From a virus (lineage: Duplodnaviria; Heunggongvirae; Uroviricota; Caudoviricetes): a stretch of DNA of 6,052 nucleotides. Of this stretch, positions 249 to 6,008 are shown in pieces. Positions within the stretch are counted from its first letter, which is position 1; the number at the start of each line of letters is the position of its first letter. Location of the stretch: the IMG/VR virus record IMGVR_UViG_2651869755_000005, one strand, 5' to 3'. Both the position numbers and the translations under genes were made by a program. The notes beneath the pieces are model-generated. The model was not told the origin of the DNA and ran no database searches. It saw only the letters and a program-made list of their open reading frames with translations.

Positions 249-419
249 GCCGCAGATGAGCTTGTCCATATGACTGCGAGAATTAACCGTGGTGAGGCGA
301 TCCCTGAACCAGTAAAACAACTTCCTGTCATGGGCGGTAGACCTCTAAATCGTGCACAGGCTCTGGCGAAGATCGCAGAACTCAAAGCTAAGTTCGGACT
401 GAAAGGAGCAAGTGTATGA
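249..419 (+). pseudogene. P: 3' remnant of lambda-type replication gene P (about 56 codons), truncated upstream by the IS insertion
   Basis: Frame continuous from the IS boundary (249) to stop TGA 417..419, ending ...KAKFGLKGASV. The stop overlaps the ren start (ATGA at 416..419), the P-ren arrangement of lambda. No intact N-terminus or promoter-proximal start exists downstream of the IS end. Confidence 0.6.
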
Positions 420-2261: not shown

Positions 2262-2448
2262 CCCATCTCAATCCCTTCAATACCTGAAAGAAAGCATAGA
2301 GCGGGCTTCAATGTGCACAGAGTGGATTCTATCTAGGTTTAGCGCATACAGAAGATTGCCGGTAAAGGGCATGCCAAGCAAGTCGATGCTGCATATGCAA
2401 AAGAATGCGCGCTGGAAGGTATGGCGAGAACACAGGTTATGTGGCTAA
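2254..2448 (+). CDS. Hypothetical small protein, 64 aa; N-terminus possibly NinF-like; 3' part overlaps an out-of-frame ybcO-like remnant
   Basis: ATG 2254 preceded by a strong SD (CAGGAGG, 2241..2247) and overlapping the upstream stop by 8 nt. The basic C-terminal third lies over sequence that in another frame encodes a YbcO-like C-terminus, so the 3' end may be fortuitous. The NinF resemblance of [10 protein letters not shown]... is a weak recollection. Confidence 0.5.
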
Positions 2449-2471
2449 AAGAGGGGGTTATTAAGGCGTGA
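2343..2471 (+). pseudogene. ybcO: 3' remnant of a ybcO-like (DUF1364 nuclease-like) gene lacking its 5' two-thirds
   Basis: Frame beginning after stop 2340..2342 reads ...[29 protein letters not shown], matching the C-terminus of DLP12 YbcO as I recall it. Its stop (2469..2471) overlaps the rusA GTG start, as in DLP12. No N-terminal Cys-rich YbcO portion is present upstream. Confidence 0.45.
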
Positions 2472-3052: not shown

Positions 3053-3436
3053 ATGCGTGATATTCAGATGGTTCTTGAGCGTTGGGGTGCGTGGGCGGCT
3101 AATAATCATGAAGATGTGACCTGGTCGTCCATTGCCGCCGGTTTTAAGGGATTAATTCCTTCAAAAGTAAAATCTCGCCCGCAATGTTGTGACGATGACG
3201 CGATGATCATTTGCGGGTGCATGGCCCGTCTGAAAAAGAACAACAGCGATTTACACGATTTATTAGTAGATTATTATGTATGTGGTATGACATTCATGTC
3301 ACTGGCAAGTAAGCATTGCTGCTCGGATGGTTATATCGGGAAAAGGTTACAGAAGGCTGAGGGCATAATTGAAGGGATGTTAATGGCATTAGATATCCGG
3401 TTAGATATGGATATCGTTGCTAATAATTCTAATTGA
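3053..3436 (+). CDS. quuD: Q-family late-gene antiterminator (QuuD-like), 127 aa
   Basis: [31 protein letters not shown]...[16 protein letters not shown]... matches DLP12 QuuD in length and sequence as I recall it; ATG 3053 with GGAG SD at 3042..3045. Track start 3038 (TTG) rejected. Confidence 0.88.
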
Positions 3437-3454
3437 TATGCAATTGTTTACTAA

Positions 3455-3486
3455 AAGTTATTAAAAATGGGGCGTGGAAACGCCCC
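3455..3486 (-). terminator. Candidate rho-independent terminator on the - strand (likely nmpC terminator)
   Basis: Stem GGGGCG (3469..3474) / CGCCCC (3481..3486) with loop TGGAAA; on the - strand the hairpin is followed by ATTTTTAATAACTT (complement of 3455..3468). Confidence 0.5.
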
Positions 3487-3573
3487 CAAAATAAAGGGTA
3501 ATATATAACAGAAGGTTTATATAGTAAGAAGCAAGGTAGTGCTTCTAAAGGAAGTGGCTTGAGGGCTCCACTT

Positions 3574-3613
3574 ATATGTTGCGGAGGCAAAGCCTCCCGC
3601 AACATATCTTTTT
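3574..3613 (+). terminator. Strong rho-independent terminator on the + strand downstream of quuD
   Basis: About 14-bp stem ATATGTTGCGGAGG / CCTCCCGCAACATAT (one bulged C), loop CAAAG, followed by CTTTTT (3608..3613). The - strand side lacks a T-tract, so it is + strand specific. Confidence 0.6.
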
Positions 3614-3624
3614 CGTAAGTCAGA

Positions 3625-4707
3625 TTAGAACTGATAAACCAGACCTACAGCGACGATGTCGTCGGTATCAATACCAGCTGTTTTGGTAAACTTACTATCG
3701 TCAATTAAGTTGATTTTGTAATCAACAAAAGTAGACATGTTTTTATTAAAGTAGTAAGTAGCACCGACATCGACATACTTGACTAAGTCTCGGTCACCAT
3801 GAACACCAAGGTCTTTACCTTTTGACTGAAGGTAAGCAACAGATGGGCGCAGACCGAAGTCAAACTGATATTGTGCTACTGCTTCAAAGTTTTGTGCTTT
3901 GTTTGCAATATGGTTATTACCAAAAACGGTCATATTCTGAGTTTCAGAATATGTGGTAGCCAGATAGATATTGTTCGCATCATATTTCAGGCCTGCAGCC
4001 CATACTTCCGCATTTTTGCCGGAGGCATTGAATTTGCTCTTACCATAGGCGACCTGACCGTCAGTGCGATCTGATTTAGCATAGGTTGCACCCACGCCGA
4101 ATCCTTCATACTCATAAGTAGTGGAGAAACCGAAACCATCACCATTGGCTTCAGTTACGTCAGTGCGGTCATTTTTACCCTGATACTGAGCAGCAAAGTT
4201 CAGGCCATCGACCAGACCAAAGAAGTCGTTGTTACGATAAGTTGCAACACCAGTAGTGCGACCAGTCATGAACACATCTGTTTGGGTCCAGGTATCACCA
4301 CCGAATTCTGGCAGAACGTCAGTCCACGCACCGATGTCGTATGCTACACCGTAGTTACGGCCGTAATCGATGGAGCCGTAATCACCAAATTTCAGGCCTG
4401 CAAATGCAAGACGGGTTTTGTCTTTGGAAGAACCTTGAGATTCAGCACGGTTGCCTTTGAATTCATATTCCCACTGACCGAAACCAGTCAGTTGATCGTT
4501 GATTTGGGTTTCACCTTTGAAGCCAAGACGGGCATAAGTAGTATCACCATCATCTGCATCATTAGAGGAGAAGTAGTGCTTGGCATTAACTTTCCCGTAT
4601 AGATCCAGCTTGTTACTGTCTTTATTATAAATTTCAGCTGCCTGAGCAGACATCGCCATCAGTACTGATGCAGCTACAGCAGAAATTGCCACTGTTAATT
4701 TTTTCAT
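3625..4707 (-). CDS. nmpC: Outer-membrane general porin of the OmpC/OmpF/PhoE family (NmpC-like), apparently intact, with signal peptide
   Basis: Signal peptide [23 protein letters not shown] then [16 protein letters not shown]...; C-terminal ...VGLVYQF with terminal Phe typical of beta-barrel OMPs. Start ATG (complement of 4705..4707) chosen over the track's upstream Met (4767) because of the signal peptide and an AAGGG SD. Position and orientation between quuD and essD match DLP12 nmpC. Confidence 0.9.
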
Positions 4708-4990
4708 TGTACGCCCTTTTTTTGAACTATTATTAAAAAATGATGTCACTGCGCGATAAATATTCATCTAATCAATGTGATTATTTCAAGATGTAAGTTT
4801 TAGTTTCTCATTTAATTTGTGAAGTAGATCTCTATTTTTATCTGAACCTTTTCTATCTAATCCTATTCATGGCTCTTGTCTGAACAAAAATAAATCTATT
4901 AGCTAATTTATATTAATGGCACTTATTTATAAGTGCTCTATAATTCTTTAGCTTAATTTAAACAAACTAAAAATAACATCGGAAATTATT
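4708..4990 (-). promoter_or_regulatory. AT-rich upstream/5' leader region of the porin gene (promoter not mapped)
   Basis: Long AT-rich non-coding stretch upstream of the porin start, containing an 18-bp inverted repeat (4919..4936) and several TCTAT/ATCTA repeats; porin genes usually carry long regulated leaders. No -35/-10 pair is assigned with confidence. Confidence 0.4.
4919..4936. repeat. Perfect inverted repeat GCACTTAT-TT-ATAAGTGC (8-bp arms, 2-bp spacer)
   Basis: Read directly from the sequence; arms are exact reverse complements. Candidate dimeric regulator operator, about 215 bp upstream of the porin start codon. Confidence 0.5.
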
Positions 4991-5133
4991 AACTGATTAT
5001 TTGTTGAAGTTTTCTTATGTATTTGTGGTGGTGTTTTGAACACTCGGTGGCATTCTCACAAATATCATTTAGTAGTTTACGTACGTAAAAAATTGGTTAT
5101 GCTGTTAAGAGTGGTTACTTCGTCACACAGCTT

Positions 5134-5166
5134 AAACCCGCCGTCGAGCGGGTTTTTCCATTTTTT
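5134..5166 (+). terminator. Rho-independent terminator on the + strand about 130 bp upstream of essD (candidate tR'-like late terminator)
   Basis: Stem AAACCCGC (5134..5141) / GCGGGTTT (5148..5155), loop CGTCGA, followed by TTCCATTTTTT (to 5166). The - strand side has only a 3-T run. Confidence 0.65.
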
Positions 5167-5295
5167 GAGTCTCGATATTAGCTGATAACCCAATACCTGA
5201 GTTATTCACTGACTCCGAATCTGTTACGTTTCTGCCTTTATTGCGATACGTAATATCCCCTTAATTTACACCCGCTTTGTCTGCGAGGTGGGGTT

Positions 5296-5511
5296 ATGAA
5301 ATCCATGGATAAGTTAACAACGGGTGTCGCCTATGGCACCTCAGCAGGTAGTGCCGGTTACTGGTTTTTACAGCTGCTCGATAAAGTCACGCCCTCACAG
5401 TGGGCAGCAATAGGTGTGCTGGGTAGCCTGGTATTTGGCCTGCTGACGTACCTGACAAACCTTTATTTCAAGATTAAAGAAGATAAGCGCAAGGCTGCGA
5501 GAGGTGAATAA
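5296..5511 (+). CDS. essD: Holin, phage 21 S-like pinholin (EssD-like), 71 aa, with dual-start motif
   Basis: [71 protein letters not shown] resembles DLP12 EssD / S21 as I recall them; Met1-Lys2-Ser3-Met4 gives the two-start holin/antiholin arrangement; GAGGTGGGG SD upstream; two hydrophobic segments. Confidence 0.9.
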
Positions 5512-6008
5512 TGCCTCCATCATTACGAAAAGCCGTTGCTGCTGCTATTGGTGGCGGAGCAATTGCTATAGCATCAGTGTTAATCACTGGCCCAAGTGGT
5601 AACGATGGTCTGGAAGGTGTCAGCTACATACCATACAAAGATATTGTTGGTGTATGGACTGTATGTCACGGGCATACAGGAAAAGACATCATGCTCGGTA
5701 AAACGTATACCAAAGCAGAATGCAAAGCCCTCCTGAATAAAGACCTTGCCACGGTCGCCAGACAAATTAACCCGTACATCAAAGTCGATATACCGGAAAC
5801 AATGCGCGGCGCTCTTTACTCATTCGTTTACAACGTGGGTGCTGGCAATTTCAGAACATCGACGCTTCTTCGCAAAATAAACCAGGGCGATATCAAAGGC
5901 GCATGTGATCAGCTACGTCGCTGGACATATGCTGGCGGTAAGCAATGGAAAGGTCTCATGACTCGTCGTGAGATTGAGCGTGAAATCTGTTTGTGGGGTC
6001 AGCAATGA
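5511..6008 (+). CDS. rrrD: Phage lysozyme with N-terminal signal-anchor-release (SAR) domain (RrrD/R21-like), 165 aa
   Basis: N-terminal Gly/Ala-rich weakly hydrophobic segment [20 protein letters not shown] followed by a lysozyme domain (...[16 protein letters not shown]...); start overlaps the essD stop (TAATG); pairing with a pinholin is the phage 21 arrangement. Confidence 0.9.

Follow-up and report, generated by a model that had tools for sequence, protein, structure and literature searches.

An intact NmpC/Lc-type porin gene on the opposite strand between the Q and lysis genes of a DLP12-like lambdoid prophage

The window analyzed here, the whole 6,052-nt stretch of DNA taken from the Caudoviricetes record IMGVR_UViG_2651869755_000005, carries an intact, full-length general-porin gene of the OmpC/OmpF family at positions 3625-4707. 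Very probably, this gene is the classical porin gene of lambdoid prophages, called nmpC in DLP12 (qsr') and lc in phage PA-2, in an intact allele that forms a self-contained lysogenic-conversion cassette. Porins encoded by prophages are a standard example of such conversion, altering passage through the outer membrane and the binding of phages, colicins and antibodies. The gene, its prophage location and the associated ipeX RNA have all been described previously, and there is no new biology in the locus.

The ORF listing contains a minus-strand frame of 380 aa (3625..4767) with an internal ATG at 4707. Read from this ATG, the coding sequence comprises 361 codons with the stop and encodes 360 aa ending in GLVYQF, with zero internal stops; the frame had been described from the sequence alone as uninterrupted over 360 codons, and the translation indeed shows neither frameshift nor premature stop. 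The Pfam model PF00267 (Porin_1) covers the product end to end (profile 1-337/337, E=1.9e-151, 504.7 bits for a cut-off of 23.7 bits), PHROG 410 matches it over its full length (1-360/360), and residues 24-360 align with the crystal chains of OmpC, OmpK36 and PhoE (E ~1e-137). Residues 1-23 are assigned as the signal peptide because residue 24, the first of AEIYNK, aligns with residue 1 of the mature OmpC chains. The peptide is of the cleavable Sec type and ends in A-x-A immediately before this mature N-terminus. The PA-2 lc record (J02580, "protein 2"), which describes an intact phage-borne porin with an identical N-terminus, likewise carries a signal peptide of 69 nt, or 23 codons, annotated as experimental. 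In an alignment of 30 homologues, Y358, Q359 and F360 are invariant, the C-terminal Phe being the β-signal for outer-membrane assembly, as are P133, G136, G137 and D138 around the PEFGGD motif of constriction loop L3 (within residues 131-140). The Porin_1 match, the alignment to OmpC chains and the YQF end thus bear out the earlier description of a complete OmpC/OmpF-family porin with a signal peptide and C-terminal Phe on the opposite strand.

Two other readings of the frame were rejected. The profile match over the full length and the conservation of invariant residues rule out a pseudogene or chance ORF. Starting at ATG 4767, as in the 380-aa form, would leave the signal peptide buried inside the product; the MKKL start is the one used by both RefSeq and the PA-2 record, and the alignment with mature OmpC begins at residue 24 of the shorter form. 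In an AlphaFold2 model, strands and long loops follow one another as expected, but the mean pLDDT is only 68, which is moderate, and L3 is poorly modelled; the 16-stranded barrel fold is better supported by the 66% full-length identity to the solved OmpC.

The gene and its surroundings are organized as follows:

3053..3436, plus strand: quuD, Q-family antiterminator and left neighbor (Pfam Phage_antitermQ, E=7.7e-54)
3459..3624, minus strand: putative ipeX-type 3' UTR of the porin, ending in an intrinsic terminator (hairpin 3486..3469, then ATTTTTAAT)
3574..3613, plus strand: terminator-like hairpin with CTTTTT after it, in the gap separating the stop codons of Q and the porin
3625..4707, minus strand: nmpC/lc-type porin coding sequence (signal peptide codons 1-23 at 4639-4707; mature protein at 3628-4638)
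4780..4809, minus strand: weak candidate for the porin promoter, GAGAAA-18-AATAAT plus an extended -10 TG (relaxed scan only, 8/12 matches)
4818..4833, unstranded: CRP-like site TGTGAAGTAGATCTCT, ~110-125 nt upstream of the porin ATG
5076..5103, plus strand: putative pR' homologue TTTACG-16-TATGCT, pointing away from the porin and toward the holin
5134..5166, plus strand: tR'-like intrinsic terminator, AAACCCGC...GCGGGTTT then TTCCATTTTTT, from a terminator scan
5296..5511, plus strand: essD, phage-21-type holin, right neighbor and among the first late genes (Phage_holin_2_1, E=2e-35)
5511..6008, plus strand: rrrD, lysozyme, right neighbor and among the first late genes (Phage_lysozyme, E=1.3e-45)

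The flanking Pfam matches agree with the initial placement of an opposite-strand porin between the Q gene and the lysis genes, within a DLP12-like lambdoid prophage. The three neighbors quuD, essD and rrrD are annotated in the same way in identical genomes. The quuD(+)-porin(-)-essD(+) order is common to DLP12, CFT073, NCTC86 and 36 phage records, and the longer rusA-ylcG-quuD-porin-essD-rrrD order is that of DLP12. QuuD is 81% identical to the Q protein of the Stx phage SC370 and only distantly related to the Q21 structures (E=4e-8). When the two phages are aligned, the gap between Q and the pR'/tR' homology block spans 87 nt in SC370 and 1688 nt in the window. GC content is 27-37% in the spacer upstream of the porin, 37-40% at the ends of the cassette and 46-54% in the nin and lysis genes. 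The porin unit is therefore an extra, moron-type segment of ~1.6-1.7 kb that separates Q from pR', the late promoter.

The position of the late promoter sets the relation between the porin and lytic transcription. Window positions 5073-5157 align at ~78% with SC370 492-575, and the pR' assignment at 5076-5103 is putative by homology to SC370 494-522, itself annotated as "pR'; putative late promoter". Directly 3' of it, the tR'-like terminator (fold of -12 kcal/mol) aligns with a terminator annotated at SC370 555-577, is identical in K-12 DLP12 and is presumed to be the target of Q antitermination; the Q21 literature describes the layout Q-pR'-SDPE-terminator. A further plus-strand promoter-like site at 4916-4944 scores better than the pR' homologue, and it too lies to the right of the porin and is directed away from it. 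The porin had been described as embedded in the late region. The SC370-based alignment contradicts this for the late operon, since the cassette lies between Q and pR'. Stx phages of the SC370/933W type also carry cargo at the Q-pR' junction, but their tRNAs and stx are downstream of pR'/tR' and Q-dependent, whereas in the window the cargo precedes pR', runs on the opposite strand and has signals of its own, and so would be expressed in the lysogen independently of Q.

The antisense placement could itself be regulatory, with phage late transcription colliding with the porin and shutting off its expression upon induction. The porin gene is convergent with Q, and N-antiterminated early transcripts running past Q would be antisense to it. 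However, the pR'/tR' homologue is located beyond the 5' end of the porin and directs transcription away from it; transcripts of the late, Q-modified kind therefore do not cross the gene. A strong plus-strand hairpin at 3574-3613 also stands between Q and the porin (-21.9 kcal/mol, z = -6.2). K-12 and PA-2 retain it with the bulge displaced, and it may act as a barrier to transcription that leaves Q without antitermination; on the minus strand this hairpin belongs to the porin 3' UTR and has no U-run after it. Finally, a shut-off occurring minutes before lysis would presumably be of little consequence for a stable outer-membrane protein. We therefore regard a regulatory role of the antisense placement as unlikely. 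Read-through of both kinds had been proposed to oppose porin expression: the late part of this proposal falls with the orientation of pR'/tR' (5076-5166), and the early part holds only for transcripts that are N-antiterminated past Q, which alone could run antisense through the porin and which meet the 3574-3613 hairpin in their path.

On its own strand, the porin is flanked by candidate expression signals. The CRP-like site departs from TGTGA-N6-TCACA at two positions and aligns with the CRP/CAP site annotated in PA-2 lc. The weak candidate promoter next to it lies in upstream spacer of 27-29% GC; a stricter scan returned no minus-strand sigma-70 promoter upstream of the porin. At the other end, terminator scanning and folding place a hairpin at 3486..3469 (-13.8 kcal/mol), and the 3' UTR as a whole adopts a multi-hairpin fold (z = -6.2 relative to shuffles). 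Because ipeX lacks an Rfam family, the 3' UTR was assessed by alignment and folding; an Rfam scan of the whole window with E up to 1 gave no match. Over positions 3437-3624 the window shares 95% identity with the K-12 and PA-2 ipeX region, and the UTR measures ~165 nt, compared with 167 nt reported for ipeX. In two papers, ipeX is reported to repress ompC and ompF, or to lower OmpC and OmpF synthesis (PMC5069750; PMC3333887). This region identity, together with the published accounts, suggests a 3' UTR of the ipeX type with putative regulatory activity. We also considered svsR, a prophage sRNA of NC101, as a possible link; it maps to the 3' end of cI, regulates lamB and is unrelated (PMC12247714).

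Published data show that genes encoding the same or nearly the same protein are expressed. In CFT073, nmpC/c1560 is expressed preferentially at 37°C at both the RNA and protein levels (PMC12890032). The CFT073 gene at the matching locus encodes the identical protein accession, and gene order and position suggest that c1560 is the CFT073 copy of the window locus. In LF82 lysogens of Perceval, NmpC stands 10-fold over background (PMC9928086), and outer-membrane proteomics detected NmpC in 89% of isolates of uropathogenic E. coli (UPEC; PMC9609314). Absence of the protein from outer-membrane preparations, which the sequence-only reading had named as a finding that would count against it, thus runs counter to the CFT073, LF82 and UPEC results on identical or near-identical proteins.

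The same data bear on the reading that the gene, while intact, is effectively silent in its source strain, kept only because the prophage is recent and contributing nothing to the outer membrane. In its favor, the title of Prilipov et al. (1998) calls nmpC a "quiescent" porin gene in E. coli B, so that an intact gene is no guarantee of expression in every background; the upstream region lacks a convincing sigma-70 promoter; and DNA this AT-rich (27-29% GC) would usually be silenced by nucleoid proteins. Against it stand the RNA and protein from the CFT073 gene at 37°C, the expression of the 99.3% identical Perceval locus at 10-fold over background, the prevalence of NmpC in UPEC outer-membrane proteomes, and the retention of the frame, the signal peptide and every family-invariant residue across thousands of copies. 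We judge a silent gene to be quite improbable.

The alignments to K-12 nmpC and Salmonella OmpD that had been proposed as a check give protein identities of 91.9% to K-12 NmpC (with IS5 removed in silico) and ~80% to Salmonella OmpD, with the frame intact; identity is also 91.9% to PA-2 Lc and falls to 66% for K-12 OmpC. In DLP12, nmpC (b0553) lies as in the window between quuD and essD in the same orientation, and rusA, ylcG, quuD, essD and rrrD are shared; the 3' UTR is 95% and the upstream spacer 92.6% identical. The nin regions differ, with ninB-dam-ninE-ninX in the window and ybcN-ninE-ybcO in K-12. PA-2 DNA is 88.7% identical to the window over 1.9 kb including both intergenic regions, and its annotated CRP site is conserved. 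A literature search on PA-2 with OmpC or Lc found nothing relevant. The Salmonella enterica OmpD porin belongs to the same clade, and several phage records give the window gene that name; at the protein level, to which this comparison was confined, its signal peptide (MKLKLVAVAVTSLLAAGVVNA) and loops L4-L8 differ from those of the window porin.

That the gene is instead a second chromosomal ompC, a host paralogue lying by chance beside phage remnants, is barely credible: it carries the RefSeq name "ompC: porin OmpC" and passes the cut-off of the NCBIfam OmpC model NF007841 (521 versus 484 bits), but this is a subfamily model and not an equivalog, hence the RefSeq label, and the protein is only 66% identical to K-12 OmpC versus 92% to PA-2 Lc and DLP12 NmpC, matches PHROG 410 end to end, and sits between Q and the holin whereas ompC adjoins micF, with the whole locus and both intergenic regions 99-100% identical in plaque-forming temperate phages such as 2G7b, ev017, PhiR11_1 and Perceval. 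By identity and by locus, the gene is thus not OmpC proper (the b2215 orthologue), and its scores are under the cut-offs of the PhoE and OmpF equivalog models. The correct annotation is nmpC/lc, a phage-borne porin of the OmpD clade.

The uninterrupted NmpC/Lc gene is real but ordinary: it is long known, common, annotated and expressed in close strains. As had been stated in the sequence-only reading, the K-12 DLP12 copy is disrupted by an IS element: MG1655 b0553 is annotated as a pseudogene joined from two pieces, IS5B sits 58 nt short of the stop at the 3' end of the gene, and the product reads into IS5, while the window copy is intact. An intact copy is not remarkable. Only 297 of 5426 complete genomes carry the K-12-type IS5 junction, making the intact gene the norm and the K-12 pseudogene the exception. 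Full-length copies are present in roughly 2500 complete genomes, and coding sequences at least 99% identical to that of the window are found in 1215 records. The exact protein (WP_000737271.1) is encoded by CFT073, NCTC86 and MMC-J-0105 and on at least 1000 contigs, under the names OmpC or "porin protein LC". The temperate phage 2G7b matches window positions 3400-5300 at 100% identity, and Perceval, among others, matches them at 99.3%. The value of the window therefore lies mainly in correct annotation, as an nmpC/lc gene that is uninterrupted, like the copies of most natural E. coli isolates, and located outside the late operon. As the gene is intact, its ipeX 3' UTR is still joined to the porin promoter, a linkage that studies in K-12 cannot model.

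In the lysogen, leftward transcription would start from the porin's own promoter region, which is AT-rich, carries the CRP-like site and has its promoter placed provisionally; this site would fit the catabolite and temperature control reported for the NmpC/Lc porin. The precursor would be exported via Sec, with removal of the 23-residue signal peptide, and the C-terminal YQF would presumably direct insertion by BAM as a 16-stranded, trimeric general-diffusion porin. The porin transcript would also carry the ~165-nt structured ipeX-type 3' UTR, for which the lowering of OmpC and OmpF is taken from the papers cited above. Since the porin and an OmpC/OmpF-repressing ipeX UTR are on one transcript, the cassette would replace host porins with the one encoded by the phage, and the unit probably works as a porin swap. 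The presumed benefit of such a swap would include altered permeability, removal or change of phage receptors, and protection against superinfection, possibly excluding other phages.

PA-2 Lc and K-12 NmpC are 98.9% identical to each other, and the window porin diverges by 8% from both, which places it in a different surface-loop allele class. It is identical to NmpC/Lc over residues 1-148. Of its 30 differences from K-12 NmpC, 25 are located in the long loops L3-L8, and the periplasmic turns have none; it is five residues shorter, with indels in L4 and L5. We tentatively propose, as a possibility held with less than even confidence, that identity through residue 148 followed by loop-restricted divergence in L3-L8 reflects recombination and diversifying selection by phages or antibodies, and that a distinct allele class travels with ipeX as an exchangeable porin-swap module, insulated from lytic transcription by its position upstream of pR' behind a plus-strand terminator. 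If so, lysogens carrying different loop alleles would differ in their phage-receptor and antigenic profiles, and possibly in permeability.

The minus strand of the window carries a reading frame at 3625..4767 in the six-frame list which, counted from the ATG at 4707, runs uninterrupted for 360 codons and a stop, ending in ...VGLVYQF, with no internal stop or frameshift in its translation. Its product matches Pfam Porin_1 over the entire profile (1-337/337, E=1.9e-151) and scores 521 bits against the NCBIfam OmpC-subfamily model, for which the cut-off is 484 bits. Residues 24-360 align to solved OmpC, OmpK36 and PhoE chains (E ~1e-137); residue 1 of the mature solved porins falls on residue 24 (AEIYNK), which makes residues 1-23 (MKK, a hydrophobic core and AQA) the signal peptide. 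The same N-terminus is annotated as such in the record of lc, the porin gene of lambdoid phage PA-2. The product has the PEFGGD motif in L3 and ends in YQF, and neither varies among 30 homologues. The sequence-only reading of a complete OmpC/OmpF-family porin gene at 3625-4707 (-), with signal peptide and C-terminal Phe, thus holds. We rejected the in-frame ATG at 4767, 20 codons upstream (4708-4767 (-); 380 aa), since a start there would leave the signal peptide internal and RefSeq annotates a CDS of 1083 nt. Several database entries named "NmpC precursor" or "porin protein LC" list longer products (380 or 385 aa), which are probably start-codon mis-calls.

Protein identities of the porin are:
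K-12 NmpC (IS5 removed in silico): 91.9%
phage PA-2 Lc: 91.9%
Salmonella OmpD: ~80%
K-12 OmpC: 66%

This ranking assigns the porin, by sequence, to the nmpC/lc type; RefSeq names it "porin OmpC", a label at the subfamily level. As the earlier reading stated, K-12 nmpC is IS-disrupted: the MG1655 gene is a pseudogene with IS5B sitting 58 nt from its 3' end, whereas the window copy is intact. The K-12-type nmpC::IS5 allele also occurs in "mutant phage 434 isolate 434B" (OL657227.1, 31-2327), inside a part annotated "approximate region of 434 nonhomology", and looks like a qsr'-type substitution acquired from its K-12 host's prophage DLP12.

The gene order around the porin is as follows:
1-~250, 3' end of an IS3-family element, opening the window
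270-419, last 49 codons only of a P-like helicase-loader gene (PHROG 109 positions 184-233/236)
416-706, ren, directly after the loader remnant
between ren and rusA, ninB, dam, ninE and ninX
then rusA, ylcG and quuD, the last at 3053-3436 (+) and encoding the Q protein
3625-4707 (-), porin, between quuD and essD
5296-5511, essD, a phage-21-type holin gene, followed by the lysozyme gene rrrD

These neighbours are those of a lambdoid prophage, in the same arrangement as in K-12 DLP12 (qsr'), and they bear out the antisense placement of the porin between Q and the lysis genes. In MMC-J-0105, otherwise 100% identical to the window, intact replication genes lie downstream of IS3, and the two matching segments together extend over 1373 nt more than the window does, so that an IS3-adjacent deletion has probably left the prophage of the source strain replication-defective. 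A DUF1364 gene fragment lies just upstream of rusA (~2382-2470 (+)), annotated in CFT073 and MMC-J-0105 as a pseudogene without its N-terminus; homology to K-12 DLP12 (97%) starts at 2382. The lysis cassette (5296-6008) is of phage-21 type, its holin belonging to the P21 holin S family (PF04971) and its lysozyme having an N-terminus that resembles a signal-anchor-release segment. In three genomes identical to the window (L001, L004 and L008), the next cargo gene after this cassette, downstream of the window after rzpD on the minus strand, is iss/bor (increased-serum-survival lipoprotein), which gives this prophage arm a second lysogenic-conversion gene.

QuuD and the Q protein of Stx phage SC370 share 81% identity; in the SC370 record, pR' (494-522) overlaps the end of Q and a terminator follows at 555-577. 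This segment aligns to window 5073-5157, giving:
5076-5103, pR' homologue (TTTACG-16-TATGCT), from the alignment to SC370
5134-5166, tR'-like terminator, from the alignment to SC370 and terminator prediction and folding

The Q and pR' homology blocks lie 1688 nt apart in the window vs 87 nt in SC370, so the porin cassette has been inserted between the two. The cassette lies outside the late operon, divergent from the pR' homologue, and not within the late region as first proposed. This layout does not support the suggestion that late read-through opposes porin expression: late, Q-modified transcription would start to the right of the porin 5' end and run away from it, so that it could not oppose the porin. 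Only early transcripts that read past Q could cross the gene antisense. The stretch separating Q from the porin stop holds a strong hairpin on the plus strand, with CTTTTT after it (3574-3613; -21.9 kcal/mol, z=-6.2), which would halt non-antiterminated polymerase. The spacer upstream of the porin has 27-29% GC and a CRP-like site at 4818-4833, just where the PA-2 record also marks a CRP site; promoter scans of this spacer gave no confident placement for the porin promoter. The region's highest-scoring sigma-70-like site (4916-4944 (+), ATGGCA-17-TATAAT, 10/12) lies in the same AT-rich spacer, ~160 nt upstream of the pR' homologue. Its -10 element is kept in K-12 and reads TATGAT in PA-2. The site may be an additional promoter directed rightward, or AT-rich DNA may have produced the match by chance.

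The porin terminator does not adjoin the stop codon but lies ~140 nt beyond it (hairpin 3486..3469, then ATTTTTAAT). The resulting 3' UTR of ~165 nt folds as a series of hairpins (z=-6.2) and shares 95% identity with the ipeX region of K-12 and PA-2. ipeX is reported to lower OmpC, and OmpF too (PMC12197685; PMC5069750; PMC3333887). An intact porin gene keeps the porin promoter and the UTR linked in the window, whereas IS5 parts them in K-12; the window would thus likely hold a working unit that makes the phage porin and turns down host porins. The prophage may benefit through exclusion of phages using OmpC or OmpF; phage PA-2 itself uses OmpC.

Seven complete genomes, NCTC86 among them, carry window 3400-5300 at 100% identity, and a search with this segment found matches in 3340 of the 5426 complete E. 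coli genomes. In 2502 genomes a single place covers at least 80% of the porin CDS, and 1215 records hold a CDS at least 99% identical to it. The exact 360-aa protein occurs on at least 1000 contigs, NCTC86, CFT073 and MMC-J-0105 sharing the accession WP_000737271.1. Temperate phage 2G7b carries the 1.9 kb of 3400-5300 at 100% identity, and PhiR11_1, ev017, Lambda_4C10, Perceval and others carry it at 99.3-99.9%. On functional phages, intact copies are the rule, and the K-12-type nmpC::IS5 junction is found in only 297 genomes; intactness, which had seemed noteworthy, is the normal state.

Published work also supplies the expression and outer-membrane proteomics that had been proposed as a check. 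CFT073 nmpC/c1560 is expressed preferentially at 37 °C as mRNA and protein (PMC12890032); by position, c1560 should be the CFT073 gene at this locus, the product of which is identical to the window porin. In an LF82 lysogen, transcription of the NmpC gene carried by prophage Perceval exceeds local background 10-fold, and the gene is counted among the Perceval morons (PMC9928086), and outer-membrane proteomics of UPEC found NmpC in 89% of isolates (review PMC9609314). The original observation was correct and its identification essentially so, but the feature is a well-known, widespread, already annotated prophage porin of reported expression.

Loop variation is the sole aspect with some residual novelty. 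Residues 1-148 are identical to K-12 NmpC, and nucleotide identity drops from ~98% to 60-80% past codon ~180. In the predicted model, the long loops L3-L8 hold 25 of the 30 differing positions and the periplasmic turns hold none (hypergeometric P ~2e-8, descriptive only since the sites are clustered); L4 and L5 also contain indels. Mosaic variation of this kind, directed at the surface, is usual for porins, and some of the loop sequences are similar to those in porins of E. fergusonii and other Escherichia.
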